From: Deltaproteobacteria bacterium
GTDB lineage: Bacteria; Bdellovibrionota_C; UBA2361; SZUA-149; JADLFC01
Direction of reading: 5' to 3'
Assembly (NCBI GenBank): GCA_020845775.1
Contig: JADLFC010000017.1
Location: 1-55,594 of the forward strand
DNA length: 55,594 bases
Positions 10,176 to 49,191 of this stretch are shown here, piece by piece. Each line of letters opens with the position of its first letter. The stretch's first letter is position 1. The notes beneath the pieces were generated by a model. That model was not told the DNA's origin and searched no databases. It worked only from the letters and a program-made list of their open reading frames with translations. The translations under genes were made by a program, and so were the position numbers.

Positions 10176-10300
10176 ATACCGTTTCCAAGAAGTAAGTTAA
10201 ATATTTTACTTTTTGGAAACGGTATTTGTTGTTTATTGGCAAGTGCTTACGCACTTGCTGTTTATACCATTTAAAAAAATCTTTTTTGTAAATGGCATAT
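10176..10300 (+). repeat. Dispersed structured repeat, copy A (three stem-loops)
   Basis: The copy reads ataccgtttccaagaagtaagttaaatattttactttttggaaacgg...ggcaagtgcttacgcacttgc...ccatttaaaaaaatcttttttgtaaatggcatat. It is about 90% identical to the copy at 17367-17490 and to the reverse-complement copy at 36496-36621. Confidence 0.9.
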
Positions 10301-10401
10301 GGCAAATTGACGTTCATTTTTTTTCTCAAGACCCAGCGTAGGTCCAAAACGATAATAAATACGGGGACTTAGTCACTTCGAGACATTGCTTGCCTTTATG
10401 G

Positions 10402-10430
10402 TTGAAGCCTTTTAGCTAAACTGCTATAAT
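10402..10430 (+). promoter_or_regulatory. Sigma-70-type promoter candidate for the rimP-nusA-infB operon
   Basis: -35 TTGAAG at 10402-10407, a 17-bp spacer, and a consensus -10 TATAAT at 10425-10430. This predicts a leader of about 200 nt before rimP. Confidence 0.5.
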
Positions 10431-10642
10431 CAAAAAGTTTTTTCGAGCGTGTTAATTTTTCTCCAGTTTTCCCGGCGCCAAGGCGCAAGTTCTCTTAGCA
10501 AGTAGGCTGCATTATAGCTGTTTTATCTGCGCTCGGGTGGTTCTAACTTCACTACATGTGGACTTGTTTGAACTCGCTGATGTGGGTGGCGCGGCGTTCT
10601 CGGGAGTAGTGTTTTTTGACTGTTGGGATGAGTTGATAGTTT

Positions 10643-11188
10643 ATGGCGTTTGTCGATGTCAATAGCGAACTTTGGCGCGAGCTCGCTTCTCTCGCGGAAG
10701 ATGATGGCGTTACGCTTTATGACGCTGCCTTGCAGGGCAATAGTAGTGTGATTATCTACGTATGCAAGAGCGGTGGCGATGGAAAGATCGCAGGCGGCGT
10801 TAGCAGCGGAGATTGCTCAAAGTTATGCAAGAGATTGATTACTTTTTTTGCTGTAGAGGCTAGTAGGTTTGGGTTGAGCGAGGAGATGCGCATAGAAGTG
10901 TCGTCTTCAGGCATTAATCGCAATTTGCGCTTACAGCGTCATTTTATGGGCGCCGTGGGAGAAAGAGTTCGCCTAACACTTTACGGGGCGGAAACTAGTG
11001 ATGACGGCAAAAAGGTGGCTAACCGAGGAGCTAGAACTATTCGCGGAACATTGAAGGCCGCGGATGAGCTAAACATTACCGTAGAAGAGGAAGGAAAGGA
11101 CGCAACAGGGGCTGTCGTCCCATATGCGAGCATTAAGAGCGCAAGAATAGATTTTAATTTTGAGAATTGTAACGGGTTGAGGAAATAA
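10643..11188 (+). CDS. rimP: Ribosome maturation factor RimP
   Basis: 181 aa located immediately 5' of nusA. The N-domain (LYDAAL...VIIYV) and length fit RimP/DUF150. Confidence 0.8.
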   Translation: MAFVDVNSELWRELASLAEDDGVTLYDAALQGNSSVIIYVCKSGGDGKIAGGVSSGDCSKLCKRLITFFAVEASRFGLSEEMRIEVSSSGINRNLRLQRHFMGAVGERVRLTLYGAETSDDGKKVANRGARTIRGTLKAADELNITVEEEGKDATGAVVPYASIKSARIDFNFENCNGLRK

Positions 11189-11194
11189 TTGCGT

Positions 11195-12676
11195 ATGGCT
11201 ATAAAGTTTGATCTAGAACAGATCGTAAATCAGGTTGGTCGAGACAAGGGCATTAGCACTAGCGTGCTAGTATCGGCCTTGGAGTCTGCGGTGCTTAGTG
11301 CGGCAAAGAAGCATTTTGGCCACAATCTGAATCTAGAGGCTAGCTATAATTCCGATCTGGGAGAAATCGAGGTTCTAGAGTTCAAGACGGTGGTGGAGAA
11401 AGTTGACAATCCGCTTACTCAGATGAGCTGGGAAGACGCTAGGCGCGATTACGATCCCGATTGCGAGTTAGGTGACGAGATCGGCTGCAAAATCGATTCC
11501 TCAGAATTAGGCCGAATAGCGGCGCAGACGGCCAAACAGGTCATCTTTCAAAAACTTCGCGATGCCGAACGCGATGTCATCTATAGCGAGTACCGCGACC
11601 GCAAGGGCGAGATAGTAAACGGCATTGTGCAGAGATTTGAGCGCGGAAATATTATTGTTAACCTCGGCAAGACCGATGCCCTGTTGCCGGCGCGTGAGCA
11701 GATTCAGCGCGAAAGATATCGACAGGGCGATCGCATCCGTGCAATGATTCTCGACATCGCTCCGGTAAGTCGCGGACCGCAAATCGTCCTTACTCGAAGC
11801 CATCCGGAGTTTATGCGAAAGCTGTTTGAAATTGAGGTTCCCGAAATATCCGAGGGCATTGTGGAGATTAAGAGCGTTGCCCGCGAACCAGGAGAGCGCG
11901 CGAAAATCGCCGTATATTCTAACGATACAAATGTGGATCCAGTCGGGGCTTGTGTTGGGATAAAGGGCTCCAGGGTGCAGGCAGTGGTGTCTGAGTTAAG
12001 AGGTGAACGCATCGACATCGTTACCTGGACACCGGATGCTCCGAGTTTTGTCGCTAGAGGGCTTTCACCTGCGGAAGTTGTGCGCGTTATCGTCGACGAG
12101 GAGGAGCACGCGATGGAGGTCGTTGTAGCAGACGATCAGCTGTCGTTAGCAATAGGACGCCAGGGACAAAACGTTAAGCTGGCCTCAAAGCTAACGGGCT
12201 GGAGGATTGATGTGCGCAGCGAGTCAGTTGCCGAGGAAGAGTCGAAGCGAGCACGAGAGGCGCTTCAATCGATTCCCGCAATTGGTTTTGGCGAAGCAGA
12301 GCTTTTGTATCAACAGGGATATCGAACTATTCAGGAGGTGAGCAATGCGTCTGTGGAAGATCTCACCTCCATCGAGGGAATTGACGAGCTAAGAGCCAGA
12401 GACATCATCGGAGGAGCGGCTAGATTGCTGGATGAGGAAAAGGTTAACGGCAGCGGCCCTAAGTCTACTGACGAGTCGGTTGCTACGGATATAGATCAGC
12501 TGGTATTGCCGGAGGGATTCCGAGAGGTGCTAGTTAAAAACAACTTTGTGACAATTCAGAGCCTTGCTTCCATAAGTCCACAGGACTTATCTCGCGCTAC
12601 TGGCTTGCAGGAAGATCAGGCGGCAGTAGTCTGTAAGGCGACGGAGTCGTTTTTGAAATTTCAACAGAGGGTGTAG
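11195..12676 (+). CDS. nusA: Transcription termination/antitermination factor NusA
   Basis: NusA N-domain, S1 domain, two KH domains and two C-terminal acidic HhH repeats are present. The length of about 493 aa matches proteobacterial NusA. Confidence 0.95.
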   Translation: MAIKFDLEQIVNQVGRDKGISTSVLVSALESAVLSAAKKHFGHNLNLEASYNSDLGEIEVLEFKTVVEKVDNPLTQMSWEDARRDYDPDCELGDEIGCKIDSSELGRIAAQTAKQVIFQKLRDAERDVIYSEYRDRKGEIVNGIVQRFERGNIIVNLGKTDALLPAREQIQRERYRQGDRIRAMILDIAPVSRGPQIVLTRSHPEFMRKLFEIEVPEISEGIVEIKSVAREPGERAKIAVYSNDTNVDPVGACVGIKGSRVQAVVSELRGERIDIVTWTPDAPSFVARGLSPAEVVRVIVDEEEHAMEVVVADDQLSLAIGRQGQNVKLASKLTGWRIDVRSESVAEEESKRAREALQSIPAIGFGEAELLYQQGYRTIQEVSNASVEDLTSIEGIDELRARDIIGGAARLLDEEKVNGSGPKSTDESVATDIDQLVLPEGFREVLVKNNFVTIQSLASISPQDLSRATGLQEDQAAVVCKATESFLKFQQRV

Positions 12677-12705
12677 GTCGAGAGCTAAGGGGGCGTAGGT
12701 CGAGA

Positions 12706-13161
12706 GTGAGGGCAAAGCCCCAGCGCACATGTGTAGTATGCAGAAAGCGCGGCGCAAAGGAGGAGTTGTGGCGTTTCGCGTTTCGCAGAGAGTGTTTGCG
12801 CAGCGAGTCAGCAGGTTTGCGCTGCGAAAGCAGCGGCTTAAACACTGATTTGCTAAAAACTGCTAAACTAGACAGAGTTGGAAAATGTTTAGGGCGTGGG
12901 GCTTATTGTCATAAGAAGGCCGAATGCTTGTTTAGTCCCCGAGCGGCTAGTTCTGTAATTTCTTCTCTGTTGCGCGGAAGCGGCAGGGAAGTCAGTGAAG
13001 ATGCGAAGAAAACTGGTAACCGCGCTTTGTTTAAGAGGCTAAAAGGTGCCCATTTAAGTATTAGGAATCTGTTAGAGGGCGATGGGGATAACGAGGATTT
13101 GTTGATGGGATGTGAGAAGAAAGCATTTCGCCTGGGTTCGGTAAAGAGCGACGGCAGGTAA
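12706..13161 (+). CDS. YlxR/DUF448-family protein (nusA-infB intergenic RNA-binding protein)
   Basis: PQRTCVVCRKR is the YlxR signature. It occupies the conserved position between nusA and infB and has a GTG start. Confidence 0.7.
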   Translation: MRAKPQRTCVVCRKRGAKEELWRFAFRRECLRSESAGLRCESSGLNTDLLKTAKLDRVGKCLGRGAYCHKKAECLFSPRAASSVISSLLRGSGREVSEDAKKTGNRALFKRLKGAHLSIRNLLEGDGDNEDLLMGCEKKAFRLGSVKSDGR

Positions 13162-13181
13162 GGATATTGAGCAATTGAGTT

Positions 13182-16025
13182 ATGTCGAATATTAGAGTTT
13201 ACGAATTAGCCAAAGAGCTAGGGTTGGAAAATAAGGCTGTTATCGAGTTATGTGCGCAGCTAGGTATCGGCGGCAAGAGTTCTCATTCCAACTCGTTAAG
13301 CGACGATGAAGCAGATCGCGTGCGCCGTTCGGTAATTCGCGAGGCCGTGAGTAGCAGTGCCGAGGACACGGTGCGAGACGTCAAGATGAAAAATGGCTCA
13401 GGCATTGAACGTCGCATGGGCAATGTCATTAGGCGCAGAAAAAAAAGCGAGGACGAGGCTCCAGAGGGTGCGAGGTTAGACTTGGCTATTTCGAGCAGTC
13501 GTGTGGATGACTTGCGAGGTGACCTGCCGAATTATTTGGATGAGCGACGAACGCGCGAGGAGGCATTGGCCCAAGCAAACGCGCTTTTTGAACGGTCTAG
13601 CGATAATGAGCAGGAGGAAGAAGAGGTTGAGCAGCCGATTGAAGAAAAAAAATGGTCGCTCAGGTCGCCAAACCTAACTGAGATTAGCAGCCCAGAGGTT
13701 ACTGGCGCAGCTCAGCAGGCGTTGGTTCCTGAGGATGCTCAATCTCGAGAACAGCATGCAGTTCTAAATAATGGAGCTAGCAGCGAGGAATTAGGTGACT
13801 CGGAGGTAGGGGCGATAGGTATTTTCCAGGAGCAAGAACCTGCGACAGTAGATGGTGCTGAGATTAGTGGTGAGGAAGATCCACTGGATGAAGTTAGGCG
13901 TCGGCACGATGTTAGGGCGTTAAAAGTTCTTGGAAAAATCGCCCTGCCAGAAAAGGCGCCTGCTGAGAAGAAACCGGCTGTAAAAAAAGTAAAAATTGTT
14001 GAGGAATTAGAGGAGGAGGTATCGCCGTCTGCGCACAAGCCTGGAAAGCATACGCGTAAATGGGCCGATGGAGGTGCAAAGCTGGATCGCGGCGGCCTTA
14101 AACCAAAGAAACAAGTTCTAAAGAAGGACGAACTACTGGATTACGAGACGGATCGCGACGTATGGCGAAAAGGTCGAGATAGAAAACCTAAAAAGGGAAG
14201 GGCGGATGTATTGGTTCAAAAGGCCGAGGTTCGCGAGTCTGGTCCAACGAGGGCCTCTAAATTGGTGGTTAAGATCGATTCGGAAATTTCCGTTGGCGAG
14301 CTCGCAAAAAACATGGGAGCAAAGGTCGGCGATGTTATTACTAAGCTAATGAGCTTGGGCGTAATGGCCGGCGTAAATCAATTGATCGATTTCGATACCG
14401 CTACTGTCGTGGCGAGCGAATTTGGGTTTACTACAGCCAATACCGGCCATGATGAAGAGGAGTTTTTGTCTGAGCTTAAAAAGGCCGATGAAAGTGCGCT
14501 TCTGGTAACTCGGCCACCGGTTGTTACCGTCATGGGCCACGTAGATCACGGTAAGACTTCCTTGCTCGATGCTATTCGCAAGACTTCCGTTAGCGAGCGG
14601 GAAGCTGGAGGAATTACTCAGCACATAGGGGCGTACAATGTGCGCGCTCCCAATGGTCAATTCGTGACTTTTATCGACACTCCGGGGCACGAGGCTTTTA
14701 CGGCTATGCGCGGTCGCGGTGCTAAGGTTACTGACGTCGTGGTGCTCGTAGTTGCTGCCGATGACGGCGTAATGCCTCAAACTATTGAAGCGATTAATCA
14801 CGCGCGCGCAGCTGAAGTTCCAATAGTTGTGGCTGTTAATAAGATAGACAAGGAAGGTGCCAATATCGATTTCGTCAAGAGACAGCTTGCCGATCAGGGT
14901 TTAATTCCAGAGGATTGGGGAGGACAGGTGATGTTTGTCCCGGTATCGGCGCGCACGCGACAGGGTATCGATGAGTTACTAGAGGGCATTTTGTTGCAGT
15001 CAGAGATGCTCGAGCTTAAGGCAAACCCAGATAGAGCAGGCTACGGCGTCGTCATTGAATCGATGTTAGATAGAGGACGCGGCGCGGTCATTACAGTTTT
15101 GGTGAAAAATGGGACGTTAAGGGAAGGCGATGTGTTTTTAGTAGGGGCTACTACTGGTAAAATAAAAGCCTTATGGTCGCATGATGGCGTTAGGGTTAAG
15201 GAGGTGGGCCCAGGCTTTCCGGTCGAAGTGTTAGGAGTTTCGGACACCCCAGAAGCGGGAGATGAGATTTTCGTCATGGCGGATGAGGCGCAAGCGCGGC
15301 AGGTGGCGGAGCACAGGGCGCTACGCAAGCGCAATAAAGAGCTGGCGCAGAAGGGGGCTGTTCGCGGCGCAATGAGCCTGGAGACGTTTTCGGAAATGAT
15401 GAAGCAGGGAGCTGTGCATGAGTTGCCAGTTATCGTAAAGGCCGATACCCAAGGCTCAGTTGAGGCGCTTAAGGAATCGCTTGGCAACCTGCAAAGAAAC
15501 GATGTGCAGGTAAAGGTCATACATGCGGGGGTCGGTGGTATTAACGAAAGCGATATACAGCTCGCTCATTCTTCGCGTGCTGTGGTTGTCGGCTTTAACG
15601 TGCGCTTTGAATCCGGGGCTAGCGACATGGCTGATAAGTATGGAGTTGACGTGCGCTTCTTTAGAGTTATTTACGAGTTATTAGACTCTCTTACGAGTGC
15701 AATGCTTGGGCTTTTGGCGCCGACCTACAAGGAAAAGTCGCTCGGTCGAGCTGAGGTAAGGACTACTTTTAAGGTTCCAAGACTTGGCACCATTGCAGGG
15801 TCTTACGTCTTAAACGGCATTATCGAGAGGGGTGCAAATGTGCGTTTGATTAGAGATAGTCGGGTGGTGTTTGAGGGAAAAATGGCGAGCCTTAGGAGAT
15901 TTAAGGACGATGTCAAAGAGGTGGGTAGTGGGTATGAATGTGGAATTGGAATTGATGGCTACTCGGATATCAAGGATGGGGATATTATCGAAGTATATAA
16001 ACTCGAAGAAGTAAGGCCAACTTAG
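13182..16025 (+). CDS. infB: Translation initiation factor IF-2
   Basis: 947 aa. GTPase motifs [19 protein letters not shown] and NKID are present, together with the IF-2 N-terminal domain and C-terminal beta-barrels. Confidence 0.97.
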
Positions 16026-16033
16026 GTTCATAG

Positions 16034-16402
16034 ATGTATAAGAAAGAGAGAAAGACCGAGAGAGTGCACGCCTTTTTAGCCGAGGAGATAAGAAGGCTTG
16101 GCGATCCCTGTTTGGGTTTTATTAGTATTACGGGAATAAAGCTGTCGCCAGACGGAAGAGTTGCGCGCATTTACTGGAGCTATTTTGGCGCAATTGGGAA
16201 CTCTGCTAATGAGTCGGCTTTTTTGAATCGCGAGGAAATTGCGGCAGTTGACGCAGCCTTAAAAAAAGCTACAAAATTTTTGCGTCGGCGAATCGGTGAA
16301 GAGCTCGAACTTAGATACGTGCCAGAGTTGATTTTTGAGTATGACAGTTCCGTAGAAACCGGAGCGCGTATAGATATGTTGCTCGAAAAGGCGGGTTTGT
16401 GA
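16034..16402 (+). CDS. rbfA: Ribosome-binding factor A
   Basis: 122 aa with the RbfA KH-like fold sequence (RVHAFLAEEIRR...VARIYWS). It lies directly after infB. Confidence 0.9.
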   Translation: MYKKERKTERVHAFLAEEIRRLGDPCLGFISITGIKLSPDGRVARIYWSYFGAIGNSANESAFLNREEIAAVDAALKKATKFLRRRIGEELELRYVPELIFEYDSSVETGARIDMLLEKAGL

Positions 16403-17391
16403 GTTTGAACAAAGAGCAATTAGCAGATATTGCGAGGCGCTTAGGTGCTTGTAAAAAAGTGCTGGTGAGCACTCATATTTCTCCCGATTCAGATGCAATT
16501 GGTTCGAGCTTTGCTCTCGCATTGGCCTTGCGTTTGCTTGGCATAGAGGTGGTAGTTTACCTCTTCGATGTCTTTCCAGAACGGATGGAGCCTTTTAGAT
16601 CTGGGGTCTCTCCAATTCATTCGATTCCAGAGAAAGAATTCGACGCCTTTGTGGGTTTGGATGCTGCAACGGCTAATCGCTTTGGGGACGATTTTGAGCT
16701 CTTGCTCAAAAGAGCAAGCCTCACGTTTAACTTGGATCATCATGTTTCAAATTCCAATTGGGCCGAGATTAATTACGTCGACTGCGAAGCAGCGGCTAGT
16801 GCGCAAATTGTTTTTTCTCTAATTAAAGAGCTTGGCGTAAGTGTAGATACTGAAATGGCGAATCTCTTGTATGCTGGTCTAGCCGACGATACTGGGAGTT
16901 TTAGGTATTCAAACGTCAATGAGAAGGTTTTTATGTGCGCTGCTGAGATCGTTAGATGTGGGGCGCAGCCTGAGCGCGTTTCAAATTGGCTGTATTATTC
17001 CGTTCCAGCTAGAGTGATGCAACTAAGAGCCTTAGCTATGGAAGTGACGAACATTATTCTCGATGGCCAGGTTGGCATGGTTGTCGTTACGAAGGAGATG
17101 CTCGATAGGTGCGGTGCCACTGCTCAGGATTCGGAAGGCATCATCGATGACGTGAGAGCTCTGCGCGGAACCATAGGAGCTGTTTTTATGCGCGAAACCG
17201 ATGATGGCTGGAAGCTAAGTTTAAGGTCCAAGGCTAGTTGCCTTAACGTACAGGACATTGCAGCAGTTTTTGGCGGTGGCGGACACTACGCAGCAGCGGG
17301 ATGCAGGATGCGCGGCAGTAGAGAGGATGTTGAAAGGAAAATTGTCGCCGAGCTCGAAAAGCATCTATGCCGTTTCCAGAAAGTGACTTAA
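16399..17391 (+). CDS. nrnA: DHH/DHHA1 phosphoesterase (NrnA-like nanoRNase/pAp phosphatase)
   Basis: DHH motifs (HISPDSDAIGS, DHH...) and a DHHA1 GGGH motif are present. It overlaps rbfA by 4 nt. Its last 7 codons, CRFQKVT*, lie inside repeat copy B. Confidence 0.85.
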   Translation: MSLNKEQLADIARRLGACKKVLVSTHISPDSDAIGSSFALALALRLLGIEVVVYLFDVFPERMEPFRSGVSPIHSIPEKEFDAFVGLDAATANRFGDDFELLLKRASLTFNLDHHVSNSNWAEINYVDCEAAASAQIVFSLIKELGVSVDTEMANLLYAGLADDTGSFRYSNVNEKVFMCAAEIVRCGAQPERVSNWLYYSVPARVMQLRALAMEVTNIILDGQVGMVVVTKEMLDRCGATAQDSEGIIDDVRALRGTIGAVFMRETDDGWKLSLRSKASCLNVQDIAAVFGGGGHYAAAGCRMRGSREDVERKIVAELEKHLCRFQKVT

Positions 17392-17490
17392 ATATTTTAC
17401 TTTTTGGAAACGGCATTTGTTGTTTATTGGCAAGCGCTTACACACTTGCTGTTTATGACATTTACAAAAATCCTTTTTGGAAATGTCATA
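17367..17490 (+). repeat. Dispersed structured repeat, copy B
   Basis: Reads atgccgtttccagaaagtgacttaaatattttactttttggaaacggcatttgttgtttattggcaagcgcttacacacttgctgtttatgacatttacaaaaatcctttttggaaatgtcata. It overlaps the nrnA stop codon. Confidence 0.9.
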
Positions 17491-17538
17491 AATAACCTTC
17501 AGCGAGGCCCCTAGGATTTATTAATATTTTTTACTTTC

Positions 17539-18486
17539 GTGTCGCAAGTAGTTCCTCAAAGTGGTGCGTTACTCGTAGATAAACCAGAAGGTCTTACGTC
17601 GTCTGCTGTGGTTCAGAAAATCAAAGCGCGCTTTGGCTTCAAGCGGCTTGGCCACGCCGGCACATTGGATCCTATTGCTACTGGCCTGCTCGTAGTCTTG
17701 TTTGGCAAAGCTACTCGCCTGCAATCGCTTCTGCTTGAAGGGAAAAAGAGTTATGAAGGTGTCTTTTTGCTAGGGAGAGCTACCGATACAGATGATATTA
17801 GTGGCAACACAATTAGTGAGGATTGCGAATTAGAACCTCTTCGCACAGCTTGCGCGAGAGATAGAGGTATCGAGCGCGAGCTCGAGAGAGCATTTGTTGG
17901 GGAGATTCTCCAGGTTCCACCAGAGTACTCGGCTATAAAAATCGCTGGCCAGAGAAGCTACAAGTTAGCGCGTCAAGGCGAAAAGGTGGTTCTTTCCGGA
18001 CGCACAGTTACTATTCATGCCATGTCGCTAGAATTTATTGACGCACCATATGAACTCGCTTACAGGATGACTGTGTCTAAGGGCACGTATGTTAGGGCTG
18101 TTGCGCGAGATATTGGCAAGTATTTGGGAGTTCCAGCGTGCGTTAAGAGCATTAGAAGAGTTGCGTCGTGCAACTTCTTAGTTAGCGAGGCTGTAACTTT
18201 GGAGAGATTGCTCGAAGCGCCATTAATACCGAACTGGTTTCTGGATATGGAGCGATTGGTAGAGCATCTTCCACGAATTACTTTTGAGGAAAGGGATTCT
18301 CAGCTTCTAAAAATGGGAAATCAAAACCCGCTTAGGACAACTCCTGCTATAGAGTCGGCAGCTGCAATCGCTTCAGGGAATGCTGAGGTAGCAGCTCTTT
18401 TTGATAACTTTAACCACTTCTTTGGCTTAGCTCGCAAGGTAGGGGCTAAGGACGGCCAAAGGTGGGAGCTTTCTTTGATCGTCTAA
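17539..18486 (+). CDS. truB: tRNA pseudouridine(55) synthase
   Basis: LVDKPEGLTSSAVV...GHAGTLDP contains the catalytic Asp motif. The start is a GTG. Confidence 0.92.
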   Translation: MSQVVPQSGALLVDKPEGLTSSAVVQKIKARFGFKRLGHAGTLDPIATGLLVVLFGKATRLQSLLLEGKKSYEGVFLLGRATDTDDISGNTISEDCELEPLRTACARDRGIERELERAFVGEILQVPPEYSAIKIAGQRSYKLARQGEKVVLSGRTVTIHAMSLEFIDAPYELAYRMTVSKGTYVRAVARDIGKYLGVPACVKSIRRVASCNFLVSEAVTLERLLEAPLIPNWFLDMERLVEHLPRITFEERDSQLLKMGNQNPLRTTPAIESAAAIASGNAEVAALFDNFNHFFGLARKVGAKDGQRWELSLIV

Positions 18487-18596
18487 GGTCTTATTTTTGC
18501 TACATTTTTCTTCTAGCTCAAGAAAACCTGGCATGGGTCGATATATTAGACTTGCAGGCAGTCGGTATAACTCTCAACAAGTAGGACTATACATGT

Positions 18597-20042
18597 ATGG
18601 CAATCCCAAACGTTAAACCTCTAGACAGGGAAAGGACATTTGCAATCGAGGAGCTGTTCTTTTCAACTACTGATGCCAAGGGAATTATTCGCTATGGCAA
18701 TAAAGTGTTTTCGAGAGTTGCTGGTTACGAGCTTGAAAAACTGATTGGAGAGCCTCACAACATCATACGGCATCCAGATATGCCGAGAGCGGTGTTTCAG
18801 TTATTGTGGGACACTATTCAGGCAGATAGACCAATAGTTGCCTATGTAAAGAACATGGCTAAAGATGGAAGCTATTACTGGGTGTTAGCAAGCGTTCTTC
18901 CGTGCAAGGGTGGATATTTGTCGATTCGCATCAAACCATCTAGTCCAATATTCGATGTCGTTAAGGCCGTATATGCTGATGTCCTCGCGACTGAAAGGGC
19001 CGTAGAGGCTGACGGTGAGCCGAATGCGCTCAAGCGTGGAATTCAGGCTGGATTGGCGCGAACACTCGAGTTGCTAAAATCCAAGGGATTTAATAGCTAC
19101 GACGAATTTATGTGGGCTATTTTTTCCACAGAAATGCTGTCTAGACGTCAGGCTATAGAAGCAAATGATAAACCCGATAAGAAGGCTTCAACCAGCTTCT
19201 CAAATGGAGCTAAAAGGAGCGATACTCCAGCGATTGACGCTAATCACAAGCTTCGTGGTTTGTTAGAAACGTGTAAAAGCCTAGATAATCACCTAAACAC
19301 CCTTTTTGGCAACGTAGGTAATTTTGAAAATCTAAACAAGCAACTGTTGCATAAATCCACCTTTATCCTAAAACTTGCCGAATCGCTAAGGCGTTTCTCA
19401 CTCAATGCCGTTGTAGAGGCTTGTCGCCTACAGGACACAGGTGCGGCGCTTACGGTAGTAGCTGAGACCATGGGTCGAAGTTCTAACGAAGGCTCAGCTG
19501 CCGTAAAGCAGTTAACGACTAGCATCGCCTCCCTAAGCAGTTCTTTGGGAGAATTGACCTTTGATCTAATCGTTCCAAAGCTTCAAGTGGAGATGATTTG
19601 TGTGTTTGTTAAGGAGCTATTGGACGAACATACTGCTGCCACAGAGCAGTCGTCGCAGAGTGAAAAAAACGATTGCGCCATAAGGGAGCATATAGAGCTT
19701 CTGGTGGATACATTGTTAGTAAGACTTAAAAAGATATCTCCGCTTCTCAACATGTTAAATAGCGACCTAAACGCTATGAATCAGCAGATTGCGGACTTGC
19801 AGAGGTTTGTGAAGGCTCTTCGCTTTATACAGTTTTCGGGAACTGTCGAAGCTGCCCGCTGCGAAGATGCGAAGTCATTTGCCCTAATATTTGACGAGGC
19901 GTTAAAGCAAATAGATGAGGCCCATAACGAATTAGCGAAATTTGCCGAGATAGTCTCGACGAATTTGCAGCAAACAAAAACGTTTGAGGCAGTAAACCGC
20001 AACATCAATTCTGAAAGCGAAGGTCTTCAGACCTTAATTTAA
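18597..20042 (+). CDS. Soluble PAS-domain protein with a diverged methyl-accepting-chemotaxis-like signalling domain
   Basis: An N-terminal PAS domain (NIIRHPDMPRAVFQLLWDTI...AYVKNMAKDGSYYWV) is followed by a C-terminal coiled-coil carrying two degenerate MCP-like segments (NAVVEACRLQDTGAALTVVAETMGR and FSGTVEAARCEDAKSFALIFDE). There is no transmembrane segment or HAMP domain. Confidence 0.55.
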   Translation: MAIPNVKPLDRERTFAIEELFFSTTDAKGIIRYGNKVFSRVAGYELEKLIGEPHNIIRHPDMPRAVFQLLWDTIQADRPIVAYVKNMAKDGSYYWVLASVLPCKGGYLSIRIKPSSPIFDVVKAVYADVLATERAVEADGEPNALKRGIQAGLARTLELLKSKGFNSYDEFMWAIFSTEMLSRRQAIEANDKPDKKASTSFSNGAKRSDTPAIDANHKLRGLLETCKSLDNHLNTLFGNVGNFENLNKQLLHKSTFILKLAESLRRFSLNAVVEACRLQDTGAALTVVAETMGRSSNEGSAAVKQLTTSIASLSSSLGELTFDLIVPKLQVEMICVFVKELLDEHTAATEQSSQSEKNDCAIREHIELLVDTLLVRLKKISPLLNMLNSDLNAMNQQIADLQRFVKALRFIQFSGTVEAARCEDAKSFALIFDEALKQIDEAHNELAKFAEIVSTNLQQTKTFEAVNRNINSESEGLQTLI

Positions 20043-20058
20043 GCGTCATGGCGTCTCT

Positions 20059-31803: not shown

Positions 31804-31864
31804 TAAGCCCGGATGTAAACAACTGATGTTAACTTTGCATAACTACTATGCGTAATTACGGTCG

Positions 31865-31893
31865 TTGCTCCTATAGACGTCGCCGTGTATAAT
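31865..31893 (+). promoter_or_regulatory. Promoter candidate for the bPH_2 gene
   Basis: -35 TTGCTC, a 17-bp spacer, and a consensus -10 TATAAT preceded by TG. A GGAG Shine-Dalgarno lies 8 nt before the ATG at 31928. Confidence 0.4.
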
Positions 31894-31927
31894 ACGTGTT
31901 ATTTTATATACTTAATGGAGATTATCT

Positions 31928-32593: not shown

Positions 32594-32645
32594 GATTTAG
32601 CAGCAATTAGCAAGTGGCCGTCATGGGCGCGATTTCAACACACTC

Positions 32646-33440
32646 CTAGTGCTCGTTTGGTTCAAAGATTAGTTTGAGTTTGTTGGCAATATTTGGCGAA
32701 AGCTTTTTAGCTGCATAGATAAACAAACCGCTCAGTGCATAGCCGGTAGATATGCCAACAATTATCAAGCGGCTGTGGTACCAGGTAAGCGCAACCAGTA
32801 TTGCCAGGATTACGAGATTTCTCATGCTACCAGCATCTATGAGCTTTATCTTCTTAACGCTAGGGTAAGTTAACGTGCTTACCATAAGAACGGCTATAAT
32901 AACGCAATATATCAAGAGCAGCATGACTCCGTAGTAGCTTGTAACTGGCTGCGGATTCCAATAGACGAGAGATGCAAGAGCGGCAGCGCCTGCCGGTATA
33001 GGCAGTCCCACAAAGTAATTCCTAGACCGAGTATCGATGTTAAACCTAGCTAAACGCGTCGCTCCCGCCACCATATATGCAAAGACCACCAAGACGCCAA
33101 ATTCATCGGCAATTTGGCTAAACGCCCAAGAGTAAATAAGTATGGCGGGCGCAACTCCGAAGGCTACTAAATCACTTAACGAATCGAACTCCCGGCCAAA
33201 GGCGCTAGTAGCATTAAGTCTACGCGCGACGCGCCCGTCCAGGCCATCGACGACAAAACTTAGAGCTATGCAGCGTATTGAGTAATCGAAATTGCCCTTA
33301 ACCGCTTGAAGAATTGCGAGGAAACCACAAAAACTCCCGATTACAGTGATTAAACTAGGGATTAGAAACATCTTCTCCTGAATCTTGTTTCTAACCAAGC
33401 GTGGTTTCTTAAATGCTAGCTTTGATTGTAGTGTGGTCAT
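32646..33440 (-). CDS. pssA: CDP-diacylglycerol--serine O-phosphatidyltransferase (CDP-alcohol phosphatidyltransferase family)
   Basis: The CDP-OH transferase motif DGLDGRVARRLNATSAFGREFDSLSDLVAFG (D-G-x2-A-R...G-x3-D-x3-D) and a multi-transmembrane topology. Confidence 0.8.
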   Translation of the reverse strand: MTTLQSKLAFKKPRLVRNKIQEKMFLIPSLITVIGSFCGFLAILQAVKGNFDYSIRCIALSFVVDGLDGRVARRLNATSAFGREFDSLSDLVAFGVAPAILIYSWAFSQIADEFGVLVVFAYMVAGATRLARFNIDTRSRNYFVGLPIPAGAAALASLVYWNPQPVTSYYGVMLLLIYCVIIAVLMVSTLTYPSVKKIKLIDAGSMRNLVILAILVALTWYHSRLIIVGISTGYALSGLFIYAAKKLSPNIANKLKLIFEPNEH

Positions 33441-33703
33441 GTTTAGTTAATAAATAAACCGTTAGCCAGAAAACTGCTATCTCACGACAGATGAAATTCT
33501 TCTGATTTTAGTCTATTTACGCGAGCGATGTCCATTGAACGCACGGAAGTTGATTCATGTTTATATCAAATCCATGTATATTAGCTTGGTAAATTTTTTA
33601 GAAGGCTAGAGTTTTTATGAAGTTACGTGTATAATTAGGCGCATTAATGGAAGCATAGGTATCTTGATTATTTATTAATTTAGAGTAAGTTACTGTATAT
33701 TTT

Positions 33704-33964
33704 ATGGCACGAATTACTGTTGAGGATTGTTTAGAGCAGGAGCCGAATCGTTTTAACTTGGTAAGGTTGGCGGCGGTCAGGGCTAAACAGTTACTAAGTG
33801 GGAGCGGAGCGGTGGTAGATTCAACAAGCAATCGAGAAATTGTTACCGCACTTAGAGAGATTGCCGATGGCAAGGTCAAGTTTCGCAATAAGCCCAGAAC
33901 TGTCTGGGATGAGGTGCCTAGTTCTAGCGATGAAAGGATGTCGCCAGTTAGCGGCAATGCTTGA
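33704..33964 (+). CDS. rpoZ: DNA-directed RNA polymerase subunit omega
   Basis: [30 protein letters not shown] is a canonical RpoZ N-terminus. spoT follows. Confidence 0.9.
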
Positions 33965-34068
33965 TATTTATTAGCCTGAAATCATTTGCTTTACTGTCCT
34001 TCTCACCTCACCGCGCGCTTGAGTGTGTGCGGGGAGGGTTGTTTTCCTAGACGTTTAAGAGGCGTACC

Positions 34069-36276
34069 ATGAGGTTGCAGGAGATCATCGTTGCGATCCA
34101 GAGCTATCAAGATGCGCCCGACATAGAAAGCGTGCGCCGCGCCTATTCTTACGTTCTCCATCACCATAAGGGGCAGACTCGCGTGTCTGGTGAACCCTAT
34201 GTAACTCATGTCACGGAGGTTGCTTTTCTCGCTGCCAAGCTCAAGCTCGATACATCTTCTATTGTTGCGGCACTTCTTCACGATACGGTGGAGGACACTG
34301 ACGTTACGTTGGAGGATTTACAGAAAGAGTTCGGCGAAGATGCTGCTACCTTGGTTGACGGAGTAACTAAACTTAGCAAAATTAATTTTAGCTCCAAGGA
34401 GGAGCAGCAGGCGGAAAATTTTCGCAAAATGCTAATCGCCATGGCGCGTGACATTCGCGTGCTCCTCGTAAAGCTTTGCGATCGCCTACACAATATGCGC
34501 ACTCTTGGTTATCTCTCTGAATCGCGGCGCAGAAGAATCGCTCAGGAAACTTTAGATATCTATGCTCCGCTTGCTCATCGCCTTGGTATTCACTGGATGA
34601 AGTCCGAACTCGAGGATCTGTCGTTTCGCCACTTAAAGCCCGAAATTTACGACAACATCAAGCGGGCCGTTAACAAGAACAAGAGAGAGCGAGAGCGCTA
34701 CATCGACGAAGTGGTTAGGCTCATTTCGCGCGAACTCGAGCAAAACAATATTGCGGCGGACGTGTCTGGTAGGCCTAAGCACTTTTATTCGATTTACCAA
34801 AAGATGCAGTCGCAGGAGCTAAACTTTGATGATATTTTCGATCTCACCGCTTTTCGCATAATCGTTAATACGCAGATGGAGTGTTACGCAGCCCTTGGTG
34901 TGGTTCATGCCGCCTGGCGCCCGATTCCTGGGCGTTTTAAGGATTACATAGCCATGCCCAAGCCGAATAATTACAGGTCGCTTCACACAACCGTTATTGG
35001 TCCGCGTGCCCAAAGGATTGAAATCCAGATTCGCACTCAGGAGATGCACGACATTGCCGAAAAAGGCATAGCTGCTCACTGGGTGTACAAGAAAGAAGGC
35101 TCGAGCACCAAGGCCTCTCCTCAGCACTGGGGACAATTCCCTTGGCTAAGAGACTTACTTGAATCCGGGAAGGCACTGCGGGATCCAGTGGAATTTATGT
35201 CAACCGTCAAGGACGATCTATTTCCAGAGGAGGTTTTTGTTTTCACTCCAAAAGGGGATGTGGTTGGTCTAGCTAAAGACTCCACTCCAATTGACTTCGC
35301 ATATCACATTCATTCGGAAGTGGGGAACCATTGCGCTGGTGCTCGCGTTAATGGGCAGCAAGTAGCGTTATCCCATCGCTTACAAAATGGCGACACCGTG
35401 GAAATAATTACGTCTAGTCGACAAATTCCCAACAAGGATTGGCTAAATGTCGTAGCAACCTCAAAAGCGAAGCAACGCATCCGGGCTTGGAGGAGGACGG
35501 AGGAGCGCGAATGTTCTATCGCGGTTGGAAAAGAGCTCTTAAGTAAGGATTTGGCTAAACTTAAGATGAACTTAAACAAGCTACTCAAAAGCGGCGAGCT
35601 GGCTAGAGTGGCGCACGAACTTAGCTTTGCGGACGAAGATGGACTGTTAGCTGAGATTGGCTACGGCAAACTCCCTGTCAATGGGGTTTTGAGAAAATTA
35701 TTGCCAGAAGATACGGATCTCGAGGCTAAATTAGCTCAGGATGAGACAACCCTTCAGAGGATTTTTAATCGCGCTGCTAAGGCATTCAAAGATCGCGGTG
35801 GGATAAAGGTTAGCGGCATGGAGGATGTCGTCTTTAAGTTTGCTCGTTGTTGCGAGCCGTTGCCGGGGGATCCGCTAATTGGATATGTGACACGCGGTCG
35901 AGGGGTAACGATTCACACGAGGCATTGTTCGCAGGCTATGGGATTTGACCCTCAGCGGCTTATAAATGTTTCATGGGACAGTGCCAAGGGCGTTACTCAG
36001 CGGCAGGTTCGCATTACCGTTATAGCGAGAGATCAGGTGGGCATTTTGGCCCAAATGAGCCAATCCATTGCCGCTACTGGCGCAAATATAGTGACGGCAC
36101 AGACTACCGTTACGCCGGACAAAAAGGCTATTAGCGTGTTTGACATAACCGTCGACGGGGCTTCCCAAGTGGATGCTATAACTAGAGCTTTAGAAAAGAT
36201 TGATGCGGTTATGAAGGTAGAGCGGCGACGGTTTGCCGATACGGCTGGTGGCGACTTTGACCAAAGTCGCTCGTAG
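34069..36276 (+). CDS. spoT: Bifunctional (p)ppGpp synthetase/hydrolase (RelA/SpoT family)
   Basis: HD hydrolase domain (HDTVEDT), RelA/SpoT synthetase domain, TGS domain and C-terminal ACT domain are present; 735 aa. It is downstream of rpoZ. Confidence 0.95.
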   Translation: MRLQEIIVAIQSYQDAPDIESVRRAYSYVLHHHKGQTRVSGEPYVTHVTEVAFLAAKLKLDTSSIVAALLHDTVEDTDVTLEDLQKEFGEDAATLVDGVTKLSKINFSSKEEQQAENFRKMLIAMARDIRVLLVKLCDRLHNMRTLGYLSESRRRRIAQETLDIYAPLAHRLGIHWMKSELEDLSFRHLKPEIYDNIKRAVNKNKRERERYIDEVVRLISRELEQNNIAADVSGRPKHFYSIYQKMQSQELNFDDIFDLTAFRIIVNTQMECYAALGVVHAAWRPIPGRFKDYIAMPKPNNYRSLHTTVIGPRAQRIEIQIRTQEMHDIAEKGIAAHWVYKKEGSSTKASPQHWGQFPWLRDLLESGKALRDPVEFMSTVKDDLFPEEVFVFTPKGDVVGLAKDSTPIDFAYHIHSEVGNHCAGARVNGQQVALSHRLQNGDTVEIITSSRQIPNKDWLNVVATSKAKQRIRAWRRTEERECSIAVGKELLSKDLAKLKMNLNKLLKSGELARVAHELSFADEDGLLAEIGYGKLPVNGVLRKLLPEDTDLEAKLAQDETTLQRIFNRAAKAFKDRGGIKVSGMEDVVFKFARCCEPLPGDPLIGYVTRGRGVTIHTRHCSQAMGFDPQRLINVSWDSAKGVTQRQVRITVIARDQVGILAQMSQSIAATGANIVTAQTTVTPDKKAISVFDITVDGASQVDAITRALEKIDAVMKVERRRFADTAGGDFDQSRS

Positions 36277-36495
36277 CGATATGTTATTAAAATACTGAGA
36301 CGCCTTGGGGTGATTTAGGGCATATTAGTTTTTTTGAAGCAAATAACAGTAGACTTCTGATATGTTTCTAAGCAAATAGGTAATAACTGTTATTTATTGT
36401 CTACAATTAACTTACTGTTTACTTTCAATAAAGTCGGAAGAATTCTCGTGGTTTATAGAATGATGCCGTGGTCTATCAGATTAGTTAGAGGTGTT

Positions 36496-36621
36496 TATAC
36501 CATTTACAAAAAGGATTTTTGTAAATGGTATAAACAGCAAGTGCGTAAGCACTTGCCAATAAACAACAAATACCGTTTCCAAAAAGTAAAATATTCAACT
36601 TACTTTTTGGAAACGGTATAT
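36496..36621 (-). repeat. Dispersed structured repeat, copy C (reverse orientation)
   Basis: Reads tataccatttacaaaaaggatttttgtaaatggtataaacagcaagtgcgtaagcacttgccaataaacaacaaataccgtttccaaaaagtaaaatattcaacttactttttggaaacggtatat. The stems are perfect: 13 bp, 8 bp and 17 bp. Confidence 0.9.
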
Positions 36622-36642
36622 TTAGGGGCGTTTTTTATAGTT

Positions 36643-37233
36643 GTGGCATTTTTTGGCAGTCTTCCAGGGCTTGCACTTGCGGATATGGCATGGATTGACG
36701 AGGCTACCGATTGCGACGATTTTCGGCTTCGCGTGCGGGTTTATACCGAGATTGCGTCTGGACTTAAGGATCTTTCGCGAACGCGACTACAAGATGTTAA
36801 TCGGATTTTTAATTTGGCCTGTAGCGAGCAATTTCGCTCCTGCGATTTTAGGTTTTGCTCTGCAAGCGCCGCATCCGAGGATAAGAGAGAACAAGCGAAT
36901 AGCAGCGTGATTACTTCTCCTAGCTTCGCAACGAGCGCGACGAGTGCTCTACCGAAGGTAGAGCCAATTGAAGCTTCAAAGAAGCTCGATACCGGAATGT
37001 CAGATAGCCCAGAGGTCATTAAGGATAAGTTATCAGACAGGAAGAATTTTTTTGTAGAACTTGACGGGCCAATTAGCCATTCCGCCAACATTGAATGGCG
37101 ACCATTTACTATCGATCATGGAGCCATAGACCGCCGCTTATTAACTGACCGCATTATGGCGCTTCAAGTTAGGACGAGGTTCTTGCCTTTTTGGTACATT
37201 AGAAACTCCCTGTTTCGCCTAAGTTTTTTTTAG
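36643..37233 (+). CDS. Hypothetical secreted protein
   Basis: The ORF is open from 36397, but its first 75 codons are read through repeat copy C. A plausible start is the GTG at 36643 (VAFFGSLPGLALA...) or the ATG at 36685. There is no recognisable domain. The C-terminus is aromatic (FLPFWYIRNSLFRLSFF). Confidence 0.35.
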   Translation: MAFFGSLPGLALADMAWIDEATDCDDFRLRVRVYTEIASGLKDLSRTRLQDVNRIFNLACSEQFRSCDFRFCSASAASEDKREQANSSVITSPSFATSATSALPKVEPIEASKKLDTGMSDSPEVIKDKLSDRKNFFVELDGPISHSANIEWRPFTIDHGAIDRRLLTDRIMALQVRTRFLPFWYIRNSLFRLSFF

Positions 37234-38325
37234 CTCCGCGCAAGAAGAAGCATATAGCCTACGAAAAACCTTTTTAAGAAGGCTAGTAAGCATTAATAGA
37301 ACAAGTACATAGCCAGCTAGCTGGTCTAAAGCTTGAGAGCCTTCGTGAACGTGTGTCTGAGTAGCTACTGAGCCACTGTATGGCTCCAGAATGACATTAG
37401 CCAGCGAGCCTATAGCAAGAGTGACTACCGCGATCGCCCCGAGATAAATGCCTAAAGCTCTATTCCCCAACTCTTCTTTGAGAACGAGAATGCTGGCGAT
37501 ATTGGTAGCAGGCCCAGCCAACAAGAAGACCAGGACTGCGCCAGGACTTAGGCCTTTTGCGAGCATAGCTGCCCCGACGGGAGTGGAGGCACTTGCGCAT
37601 ACGTATAGCGGCAGCGCCACGATAAACATTAATAGCATAGAGGTAAAGGGAGAAAGTCCTAGCAACTCTATGCTATTAGCAGGAACTGCAACTGCAATTA
37701 TTCCTGCAATAAAGTATCCAGTAAGCATGCTAAGCGCGATGTCGTCAATTACCGTTACGTAGCCAAAGTGAAGTATTGAGACGAGTTTCTCGAAAGCTAT
37801 TTTTAGGAACGGCGATTCTGAAGCTCGCGTTTTAGCCAAAGACGCCTTGCAGCAGACCGCTGCGCCAGACTCTTCCGTTAAACTACTGACACCTTGCGGC
37901 GCGGCTTCCTCAGGAGCGGCAAAGGTGTCAATGAGCGCACCAGCGGTAAGTGCTGATACAAAGGCCGCAACGGCTCTGGCAATCGCAATAAAAGGCCCAA
38001 GCAGCGCGTGGCTCAAAAAAAAGGAATCTATGCCAATTTCTGGCGTGCTAATCATGAAACTAGCCACTGCTCCGCGACTAGCCCCAGTCCTTCTAAGAGA
38101 AACCGCAACCGGGACTACGCCACACGAACAGAGCGGCAGTGGCATCCCTATAAGAGACGCCTTAATTACCGATTTTAGGCCGGGCTCCCGCAAATGTTGC
38201 CTTATAAAATCGGCTGGAAAGAAAACTTTTATCACGCCGGCCAAAAATAGCCCCACTAGCAACCAAGCCGCGCTATCTGTCGCCATTTTCCAGCTCGAAT
38301 TAAACCACTGTAATAAAACGTCCAT
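37219..38325 (-). CDS. COG0701/UPF0718-type permease with a CSCG motif
   Basis: A multi-transmembrane protein with LPLCSCGVVP in the loop after TM2. It is co-directional with an upstream Rrf2 regulator. Confidence 0.7.
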   Translation of the reverse strand: MDVLLQWFNSSWKMATDSAAWLLVGLFLAGVIKVFFPADFIRQHLREPGLKSVIKASLIGMPLPLCSCGVVPVAVSLRRTGASRGAVASFMISTPEIGIDSFFLSHALLGPFIAIARAVAAFVSALTAGALIDTFAAPEEAAPQGVSSLTEESGAAVCCKASLAKTRASESPFLKIAFEKLVSILHFGYVTVIDDIALSMLTGYFIAGIIAVAVPANSIELLGLSPFTSMLLMFIVALPLYVCASASTPVGAAMLAKGLSPGAVLVFLLAGPATNIASILVLKEELGNRALGIYLGAIAVVTLAIGSLANVILEPYSGSVATQTHVHEGSQALDQLAGYVLVLLMLTSLLKKVFRRLYASSCAELKKT

Positions 38326-38365
38326 TGTTTATTTTCTCAACAACAGCTTATTGTTTACCGAAGGC

Positions 38366-38845
38366 CTATTCACAACATGACAGTACCTTAAGAGATGTCG
38401 AGGAGTCTGATTTATCTAGCAATTTGTCCAATGTGTAATTTTTCAAGAAGGCATTTAGGTGTTCCTTGAGATCGTTCCATACTGGCCTTAGCCAGCAACT
38501 AGAATGAGGAGCGCAACGCAACTTAGGATCCAGTGGTTTAGTGCTGCAAATTAGTTCAAATGTCTCCCCCTCAACGGCAAGCAGTATGTCATAGAGAGTG
38601 ATTTCACTTGGGCTACGGGCTAGCTTGTAACCACCGTGCGGGCCACGAGTGCTTGTAACCACATTGCCTCGGCGCAGGCGATGAAGTATCTGTTGAGCGT
38701 ATTGCAGAGCTATGTCTTGATTCTCAGCGATTTCAGTAGCAGTTACGCAAACATCTTGGGCCGCTACCAAGGGGCGCTCCTGATTGCGTTTAGCTAGGTA
38801 TAGAGAAAGCAAAACTCCATACTCTCCCCACTGTGTAATTCGCAT
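38366..38845 (-). CDS. Rrf2-family (IscR/NsrR-like) transcriptional regulator
   Basis: MRITQWGEYGVLLSLYLA...TSTRGPHGGYKLARSPSEITLYDILLAVEG matches the Rrf2 winged helix-turn-helix. Cys residues spaced C-x9-C-x5-C could ligate an Fe-S cluster. Confidence 0.8.
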   Translation of the reverse strand: MRITQWGEYGVLLSLYLAKRNQERPLVAAQDVCVTATEIAENQDIALQYAQQILHRLRRGNVVTSTRGPHGGYKLARSPSEITLYDILLAVEGETFELICSTKPLDPKLRCAPHSSCWLRPVWNDLKEHLNAFLKNYTLDKLLDKSDSSTSLKVLSCCE

Positions 38846-38937
38846 ATTTCAAATCTCGCTCGCAAGTGCCTGCCTCTAGAGAGAGAGTATATGCGACAAA
38901 TTCCTGTGGCTCAACAGCTAGGTGGATCTGGCGATGG

Positions 38938-38993
38938 GGTTATACCATTTACAAAAAGTAAAATATTTAACTTACTTTTTGGAAACGGTATAT
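38938..38993 (-). repeat. Dispersed structured repeat, copy D (internally deleted)
   Basis: gttataccatttacaaaaagtaaaatatttaacttactttttggaaacggtatat is copy C with an internal deletion of about 68 bp that falls between two short aaaaag direct repeats. Confidence 0.8.
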
Positions 38994-43915: not shown

Positions 43916-44116
43916 TTGAAATCGAATGTTTCTCGCCAAAGCTTGACCCTTAAGCGCTAGGAAAAGAAATTGTGATGGGATTTATTAAAAACCGTTCTTC
44001 CGATTTACACTCAACAGACCTGTTAAATTAGGCCTTTAAGTAGCAAAACCCGCGTAAAAACAACAACTTATAAAGTTCTTGCGCTGACGCGCACGAAATT
44101 ACTCATTAAAACAATA

Positions 44117-48174: not shown

Positions 48175-48199
48175 ATTCTTCGCAAAAAAAGGTCGCTAT

Positions 48200-49162: not shown

Positions 49163-49191
49163 ACATTACTACTATATGTTTCTCGACTATC

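Follow-up and report, generated by a model that had tools for sequence, protein, structure and literature searches.

A small repeat that folds into hairpins recurs four times in a 55,594-nt stretch of DNA (hereafter the window) from an uncultured Bdellovibrionota-like bacterium, which carries the NCBI label "Deltaproteobacteria bacterium" and locus tags of the IT291_ series. The question raised by this locus is whether the copies are mobile DNA, structures kept by the host or the outcome of a local duplication. The reading favoured here, at a probability of roughly 0.6, is that they are mobile DNA elements of a non-autonomous, MITE/REPIN-like family. The family itself is previously undescribed, while elements of this general kind are common and well known, and no new type of system is involved.

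All four copies listed in the first-pass annotation are present where it had placed them, beside the neighbouring genes that it had named. Three of them (A, B and C) are full length, with 124 nt each. Copy A (10176-10299, + strand) is found where an LTXXQ-family gene (9675-10067, - strand) and rimP (10643, + strand) diverge, and its hairpins 1, 2 and 3 occupy positions 10176-10225, 10239-10258 and 10264-10298. Copy B (17367-17490, + strand), the most divergent of the copies, has the conserved end of nrnA (17366) on one side and truB (17539) on the other, with hairpins at 17367-17416, 17430-17449 and 17455-17489. Copy C (36496-36621, - strand), used as the reference copy, has all three stems perfect (hairpins at 36619-36570, 36556-36537 and 36531-36497) and is located between spoT (end at 36276, + strand) and a gene for a hypothetical protein, P0001, the annotated N-terminus of which is translated from the element. 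Copy D (38942-38993, - strand) is an internally deleted form of 52 nt with a single hairpin, which starts 10 nt 3' of the stop codon of a DUF5658 gene (39003) and upstream of an Rrf2 gene (38845). Over alignments of 124-127 nt the pairwise identity is 96% for A-C, 90% for B-C and 89% for A-B, close to the figure of about 90% given previously. In a scan of the window, the stem-1 17-mer was matched 8 times against 0.26 expected, the stem-2 sequence 5 times against 0.01 and the stem-3 sequence 4 times against 0, all of them within copies of the element.

The ends of the copies are sharp and identical, the flanks are unrelated across four different contexts, and both orientations are represented. 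These observations bear on one explanation, namely that an intergenic piece was duplicated a few times over a distance of about 29 kb, with neither mobility nor function. Such a segmental duplication would account for the clustering: all four window copies sit at 10.2-39.0 kb, a profile search of the window returned no copy beyond A-D, and the other 27 kb, as well as about 5 kb gained by walking along Logan contigs beyond the window, are free of copies. Against the mobile-element reading count the small number of known copies, five on two contigs, and the possibility of local spread for the four that lie within 29 kb of one another. However, no flanking DNA has been co-duplicated with the precisely bounded copies, both orientations occur, the internal architecture is an elaborate one built on a fourfold motif, the compensated substitutions described below are non-random, and the fifth copy resides on a different contig, in an unrelated gene. 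On balance, local duplication is very improbable.

The fifth copy was located by searching the six-frame peptides of the element as protein queries, and the only matches were the window's own open reading frame (ORF) and P0002, encoded by the same MAG on a contig other than that of the window. In P0002 a TMEM260-like domain is cut at position 73 of 179, and the protein reads through the entire element in a stop-free frame up to the end of the contig, which coincides with the element. Two of the six frames of the element are stop-free, and under a model of TA insertion the increment of 123 nt would correspond to 41 codons. When a strain with an uninterrupted gene (an empty site) was sought with the N-terminus of P0002, the search gave no close variant. 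At least two gene models are corrupted by the element: the start of IT291_01080 is read from copy C, and the TMEM260-like ORF, which is partial, continues into the fifth copy.

A further overlap with coding sequence is provided by copy B, which supplies the last seven nrnA codons (CRFQKVT) and the stop codon (17368-17391) and falls within the infB-rbfA-nrnA-truB operon. The earlier statement that all copies adjoin operon boundaries is contradicted both by this position and by the interruption of the TMEM260-like ORF. In the two nearest available relatives, whose NrnA identity is about 50%, the nrnA-truB junction lacks the element and consists of a 3-nt gap or a 4-nt overlap. When positions 17368-17490 (123 nt) are removed in silico, NrnA ends in ...EKHLNNLQRGP*, a tail of normal length, and the stop codon comes to lie 24 nt before truB, so that a compact junction is regained. 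Copy B has probably rewritten the 3' end of nrnA and split a normally compact operon with a strong hairpin.

The copies are also carried by six independent SRA assemblies (SRR11294019/22/33, SRR30202054/55 and SRR30756388), on which grounds an assembly artefact was rejected. Logan contigs break inside them: those from three runs at 10244, within copy A, those from three runs within copy C and those from six runs within copy D, as expected for a multi-copy repeat. The element has a practical value in accounting for contig breaks in assemblies of the source organism. The check for polymorphism between strains that had been suggested earlier yielded no empty site, all six samples carrying A-D wherever these could be seen, and this lack of an empty site in close strains is a further point against the mobile-element reading. 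The orthologous copy B in SRR11294019 differs at two sites. An excess of strain divergence in copy B was considered and dismissed, 2 differences in 124 nt being not significantly above the 5 in 883 nt of non-coding DNA.

From a structural perspective, the core of the element (about 121 nt) is organized around one motif of about 18 nt that occurs four times, two copies forming the left-end hairpin and two the right-end hairpin, with a short GC-rich hairpin in the middle. In copy C the first motif copy, M1 (36600-36621, - strand; about 18-21 nt, TATACCGTTTCCAAAAAGTAA), is closed into hairpin 1 by the inverted M2, while M3 and M4 (TATACCATTTACAAAAA) are the two arms of hairpin 3; by itself the motif is non-palindromic. 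The element contains no coding gene and is AT-rich, with about one third G+C as counted on copy C, against 44-51% GC for the contig. As previously described, each full copy folds into three hairpins, and this was reproduced for RNA and single-stranded DNA (ssDNA) on either strand (z from -8.8 to -14.8); stem 1 of copy C, reported as perfect over 17 bp, is in fact perfect over 20 bp. The predicted fold consists of three local hairpins with no end-to-end stem, which departs from the textbook MITE fold and in this respect weighs against a mobile element.

The terminal inverted repeats, whose existence had been denied, are formed by M1 and M4: the ends of the element (TATACCGTTTCC...GGAAACGGTATA) carry TATACCGTTTCCAAAAAG and CTTTTTGTAAATGGTATA, matching at 16 of 18 positions in copy C, with TATACCATTTACAAAAAG as the right end. 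The relationship between the two ends is also visible in copy D, which comprises the left arm of hairpin 1, loop 1 and the right arm of hairpin 3 and in effect has the two ends of the element paired with each other. Judged by its sequence, copy D is the product of a deletion that had the direct repeats CTTTTTGgAAAcGGTAT and CTTTTTGtAAAtGGTAT as its endpoints. Furthermore, TA or AT flanks are present at every copy (exactly TA...TA in B, C and D, CA...TA in A), and no copy has a flanking direct repeat longer than TA. Insertion may have duplicated a TA target; as TA is identical to its reverse complement, such a duplication is inseparable from palindromic ends, a point that limits its weight for the mobile-element reading and equally prevents the assertion that target-site duplications are absent. 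Since terminal inverted repeats exist and a target duplication is possible, the conclusion of the first-pass annotation that the element is not a classical MITE does not follow.

That annotation had preferred a REP/BIME-type or small-structured-RNA family, of which the dispersed, hairpin-forming small repeats are borne out. The corresponding explanation, in essence the one it favoured, is that of a cis-acting structure selected by the host in the style of REP/BIME or SPRITE, serving in the mRNA as a terminator or a 3'-end stabiliser, or else as a site for DNA or protein binding. Folding is very stable whichever strand is considered, and in copies A and C hairpin 1 followed by TTTGTTGTTT is terminator-like; moreover, D lies just past a stop codon and B at a gene end. 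Nevertheless, the terminator-like feature concerns one of the three hairpins in one orientation only, copy orientation relative to the neighbouring genes is inconsistent, and so is the direction faced by the terminator-like side, which in A lies in a divergent promoter region and in C is antisense to spoT and the downstream gene. In copy D the T-run has been lost, and copy B would terminate transcription within an otherwise compact operon. A role as promoter was likewise rejected, the full copies having no sigma-70-like site above the shuffled expectation, and neither a promoter motif nor an IHF site was detected in the element.

Selection by the host on such a structure would explain the compensatory changes. 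The C:G to A:T change noticed earlier in stem 3 of copy B is real, and two further compensated pairs bring the total in this copy to three (P about 2e-4 to 1e-3), with the same motif position altered in all four motif copies. However, the stem-1 changes of B pair only in the + RNA and its stem-2 changes only in the - RNA, so that no single RNA strand retains all stems; two mismatches in copy A are uncompensated, and in a strain variant of B the G:C of the window copy is replaced by an A.C mismatch. With changes that are strand-specific and mismatches that are left uncompensated, selection by the host on an RNA structure is not supported. The compensated changes more probably would reflect the element's own need for intact end hairpins in a lineage that was still transposing, or a templated correction of quasi-palindromes, and would not indicate a host function. 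One copy, moreover, lies inside an ORF, and at gathering thresholds no Rfam family was matched anywhere in the window, the E-value mode giving only generic, miRNA-like hairpin matches far below threshold. Altogether, a host-selected structure appears unlikely.

The same compensated changes, concerted across both hairpins of copy B, can be read in terms of mobility as ssDNA. Under this explanation an HUH/Y1 tyrosine transposase (an IS200/IS605-type TnpA or a RAYT) would read the two terminal hairpins; the "inverted repeats" would then result only from the resemblance between two palindromes, and no target duplication would be made. The presence of one hairpin per end, derived from the same motif and stable as ssDNA at both ends, agrees with this possibility, as does the absence of an unambiguous target duplication. 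A parallel is offered by REPINs, in which compensatory changes are common and for which a RAYT has been proposed as mobiliser (PMC3116915; PMC6006769). On the other hand, no conserved tetra- or pentanucleotide target is found 5' of the left end beyond the stem's own TA(T/C)A, the basic motif is non-palindromic, no single long hairpin of the REPIN type is formed, and some copies lie in or overlap ORFs, unlike classical REPs; the window, in addition, contains neither RAYT nor TnpA. This mode of transposition is considered an improbable one for the family.

Searches of other sequence collections yielded no relative of the element. A scan of a genome collection with the 17-mer TTACTTTTTGKAAAYGG gave at least 120 single chance matches, with no real copy among the matches listed, and a scan of JGI metagenomes with a 21-mer gave one match, by chance, in a coding region. 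No match to the element was obtained in IMG/VR, nor by blastn against plasmids and phages. A search for tRNA and tmRNA found none, and a tRNA-derived origin was therefore ruled out. The earlier remark that no transposase is present agrees with the present results, as none is encoded in the element and a transposase domain was detected in none of the window's long ORFs.

Under the favoured reading of a non-autonomous mobile element, a transposase gene at another place in the genome would supply the enzyme that recognises the motif or the hairpin ends, and each insertion, at TA or in AT-rich DNA, would add 123 nt. Copies would settle in intergenic DNA, at gene 3' ends as in nrnA and, in one or more cases, within an ORF, and would later decay through point mutation or through deletion between internal direct repeats, as in copy D. 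Any effect on the host would be incidental, consisting of strong hairpins in mRNA and, in one orientation, of a terminator-like hairpin with a T-run. A bolder proposal is that of a new class of hairpin-ended elements moved as ssDNA in Bdellovibrionota-like bacteria, in which an HUH/RAYT-type enzyme would read the fourfold 18-nt motif, motif and enzyme would co-evolve, and copies would reside in-frame in proteins in the manner of RPEs. Co-evolution of this kind is suggested because the same base change is found in 4/4 motif copies of B, and, were the proposal true, a stop-free insertion of 123 nt would let the element reside in-frame, as RPEs do; as a whole it is quite doubtful. What is gained is one more family of small palindromic repeats, from a lineage that has been sampled poorly, and greater interest would arise only if copies proved numerous, if they had a mobiliser of their own (RAYT-like) or if they often resided in-frame in proteins.

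Among the known systems, SPRITEs are dispersed small repeats containing a terminator-like hairpin followed by a T-run (PMC10969869), and the element resembles them in these features, although two of its three hairpins are not terminator-like, its orientation to genes is inconsistent and copy D lacks the T-run. With the RAYT-mobilised REPINs and REP/BIMEs it shares repeat units that are short, palindromic and paired in inverse orientation, compensatory changes that keep the hairpins, as is common in mobile REPIN hairpins (PMC3116915), and the lack of an internal transposase, and copy D resembles REP singlets. The REPIN unit, however, is a short imperfect palindrome, two inverted units of which form one long hairpin (PMC3116915), whereas the 18-nt unit is here non-palindromic and the hairpins are three and local; REPINs and REP/BIMEs are GC-rich and the element AT-rich; and REPs, REPINs and BIMEs are strictly extragenic, whereas B overlaps the 3' end of nrnA and the fifth copy lies in the TMEM260-like ORF. 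Palindrome-associated elements derived from IS200/IS605 have subterminal hairpins at both ends and insert 3' of a conserved target of 4-5 nt, which is not duplicated; the present element has a hairpin at either end, and its left flanks share only (T/C)AT(A/G), which belongs to the stem. RPEs (Rickettsia palindromic elements) are palindromic, about 100-150 bp long and able to sit inside protein-coding genes (PMC10969869), their in-frame insertion leaving the host protein continuous, and one copy here likewise occupies an open frame; this intragenic case is a single one and ends at a contig end, most copies being intergenic, and there is no sequence relationship.

A further comparison concerns the TA-target MITEs, such as the Correia element of Neisseria and the cyanobacterial MITEs derived from IS630/Tc1. 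A TA target duplication is made by the Correia element. The present element differs from these MITEs in that it has no sequence similarity in any collection searched, each of its ends is a hairpin of its own where a MITE usually forms one end-to-end stem, and IHF-site or promoter motifs were not detected. Prokaryotic MITEs are defined by a size below 500 bp, AT-richness, lack of a transposase gene, terminal inverted repeats and a flanking target duplication, and internally deleted derivatives like copy D are known in other MITE families (PMC10969869). The element, with its size of 124 nt, its AT-richness, its lack of a transposase gene and its terminal inverted repeats, agrees with this description, and it shares with the TA-target MITEs a length of about 100-200 bp without an ORF, terminal inverted repeats of about 18-26 bp, TA-flanked ends, stable transcript folds, internally deleted variants and insertions upstream, downstream and occasionally inside genes.

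The element is present in the window as three full-length copies, A (10176-10299, forward strand), B (17367-17490, forward strand) and C (36496-36619/21, reverse strand), recovered by repeat search as matches of 124-127 nt, and as a 52-nt relative, copy D (38942-38993, reverse strand). Matches to the stem sequences as well as the repeat search bear out these four positions, which had been given in the first-pass annotation, and an nhmmer profile built from A, B and C detected no further copy of greater divergence in the 55.6 kb. The full copies are 96% (A-C), 89% (A-B) and 90% (B-C) identical. Each is predicted to fold into the three hairpins previously described, as RNA or as single-stranded DNA and on both strands (z -8.8 to -14.8), and the three stem sequences are confined to element copies within the window (8, 5 and 4 occurrences against 0.26, 0.01 and 0 expected from shuffled sequence).

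Alignment of the copies and extraction of the hairpin arms revealed one motif of about 18-21 nt present four times per element. M1 (TATACCGTTTCCAAAAAGTAA) and M2, the same motif inverted, make up hairpin 1, while M3 (TATACCATTTACAAAAA) and its inverse M4 make up hairpin 3; between them lies a GC-rich hairpin of 8 bp, GCAAGTGC-TTAC-GCACTTGC. Since the motif is used four times with its outermost copies inverted, the element ends in a terminal inverted repeat matching at 16 of 18 positions, contrary to the earlier statement that such repeats are lacking. Copy D consists of M1, loop 1 and M4, with a predicted fold pairing its left end with its right end, and arose by deletion between two direct repeats, CTTTTTGgAAAcGGTAT and CTTTTTGtAAAtGGTAT. 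TA/AT borders every copy: in B, C and D, TA is followed by T(A/G)CCG...(G/T)(G/C)(T/C)A and again by TA, and A has CA at the left. A 2-bp TA target duplication, indistinguishable from the palindromic ends, is therefore possible, and the absence of obvious target-site duplications fails as an argument against a MITE. Such a duplication would imply a core of 121 nt and an insertion increment of 123 nt, or 41 codons; two of the element's six frames are stop-free.

The neighbouring genes, whose names were confirmed by Pfam, place A between an LTXXQ gene and rimP-nusA-ylxR-infB-rbfA-nrnA, B between this series and truB, C between spoT and a hypothetical gene, and D between a DUF5658 gene and Rrf2-ArsP. 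Not all copies lie next to operon boundaries, as had been proposed, because B is inside an operon: nrnA and truB are separated by 3 nt or share a 4-nt overlap in the two nearest relatives available. The conserved NrnA sequence in the window ends at ...EKHL, precisely at the element edge, and B gives nrnA its last 7 codons, CRFQKVT, and stop (17368-17391). Across the stretch between B and truB (17491-17538), in-silico removal of 123 nt yields the tail ...EKHLNNLQRGP, in which the seven residues NNLQRGP replace CRFQKVT, ending in a stop codon that lies 24 nt upstream of the GTG of truB. The compact junction in relatives, the NrnA end at the element edge and the excision result constitute indirect but coherent evidence that B entered nrnA at its 3' end. 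The nearest named NrnA relatives belong to Bdellovibrionota and Oligoflexia MAGs (at most 48% identity). Downstream of truB the window has a PAS-domain gene (17539-20042 for the pair) where relatives have rpsO-pnp, which marks a synteny break just downstream of B. Further on, a large reprolysin-type metalloprotease ORF (20059-23544, forward strand) contains five DNA repeats of about 41 nt (22129-22859) encoding D-x-D-G-D-G FG-GAP-like units, an ordinary protein-repeat structure unrelated to the element.

Two matches came from a protein search with the element translated in six frames. The first, IT291_01080 (36448-37233, forward strand, 261 aa, no Pfam match), is the window's own ORF, entered at NCBI as a MAG hypothetical protein from Deltaproteobacteria bacterium, and the window is a whole contig of that MAG; as the gene model starts inside copy C, its first 60 or so residues are translated element, and the start is probably mis-called, the real one likely lying downstream of 36621. 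The second match, a partial DUF2723/TMEM260-like protein, comes from an 11.3-kb contig that carries the same NCBI organism label and is taken to belong to the same MAG. The element, translated in an open frame that is stop-free up to the contig end, makes up the last 41 residues of this protein, whose Pfam domain ends at model position 73 of 179, precisely at the element start, so that this fifth copy either sits within the gene or truncates it. An in-frame, RPE-like insertion is possible, the ORF being read only to the contig end.

The organism is present in Logan assemblies of six SRA runs, at 99.2-100% identity to the window, and the copies are real genomic features. Contigs terminate within A (at 10244), within C and within D, breaks that a multi-copy repeat produces, and one 18-kb contig spans B; no strain without a copy was found in these six assemblies. 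The SRR30202054 population (contig L125) is 99.2% identical to window 44097-55594 (91 mismatches in 11.5 kb), and the SRR112940xx populations are closer (99.8-100%). Several strains are thus represented in public data, which could be mined for insertion polymorphism. Of 30 differences from a 17-kb SRR11294019 contig, 8 are packed in 193 nt of nrnA (16539-16731) and 14 fall in 16539-17504; the region next to B may be locally variable or represent a recombination tract. L125 (at 13171) and L126, from another run (at 3920), break off at the identical position after a Tad-like gene, about 2.9 kb past the window's right end. The shared end hints at a further repeat or branch point; its terminal sequence is not that of the element.

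Relative to C, B carries 13 substitutions, six of which form three compensated pairs: A:T to G:C in stem 1, A:T to G:C in stem 3, and the C:G to A:T change in stem 3 that the first-pass annotation had recognized. With 13 substitutions placed at random, the probability of at least three such pairs lies between 2e-4 and 1e-3 according to the transition bias, in a post hoc test based on one diverged copy. Compensation is non-random, but several observations speak against an RNA structure serving the host: single changes in stem 1 of B give G.U only in the plus transcript and those in stem 2 give wobble only in the minus transcript, two stem mismatches in A are without compensation, a G:C pair of the window is A.C in the SRR11294019 variant of B, and the two strain differences inside B show no excess over local non-coding divergence. 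The A-to-G change occurs in B at the identical position of all four motif copies, which favours motif recognition or inter-hairpin exchange over a general pairing requirement. Compensatory changes can also arise without selection, through templated correction of quasi-palindromes. Hairpin 1 followed by TTTGTTGTTT passes a scan for terminator-like sites in A and C, but the copies share no consistent orientation (A occupying a divergent promoter region, B co-directional inside its operon, C antisense to both neighbours) and the T-run is gone from D. No promoter-like site exceeding shuffled expectation was found in the full copies, and any regulatory effect on the host looks incidental.

The element was not found in JGI metagenomes, in IMG/VR or among plasmids or phages, and is without an Rfam match; a genome-collection scan with a pattern too short to be discriminating gave only chance matches among the matches listed. 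This repeat family, with its terminal inverted repeats, hairpins, fourfold motif, deletion derivative, positions within and at the ends of genes and non-random compensation, is best read as a MITE/REPIN-like, non-autonomous transposable element, with a probability of roughly 0.6. The element would be mobile, moved by a transposase either of the DDE type with a TA target or of the HUH type acting on single-stranded DNA, and its hairpins would be kept by element-level selection; none of the long ORFs in the window matches a transposase family. Of the former description (a small structured repeat or one of REP/BIME type), the dispersed structured family is retained, whereas the grounds for excluding a classical MITE fail, as the element has terminal inverted repeats and may have a TA duplication. 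With no match in any collection searched, the family is new. Its kind has long been known: the features compared here are those of MITEs as given in PMC10969869, and REPINs, proposed mobile hairpin elements, are described in PMC3116915 as commonly showing compensatory changes.
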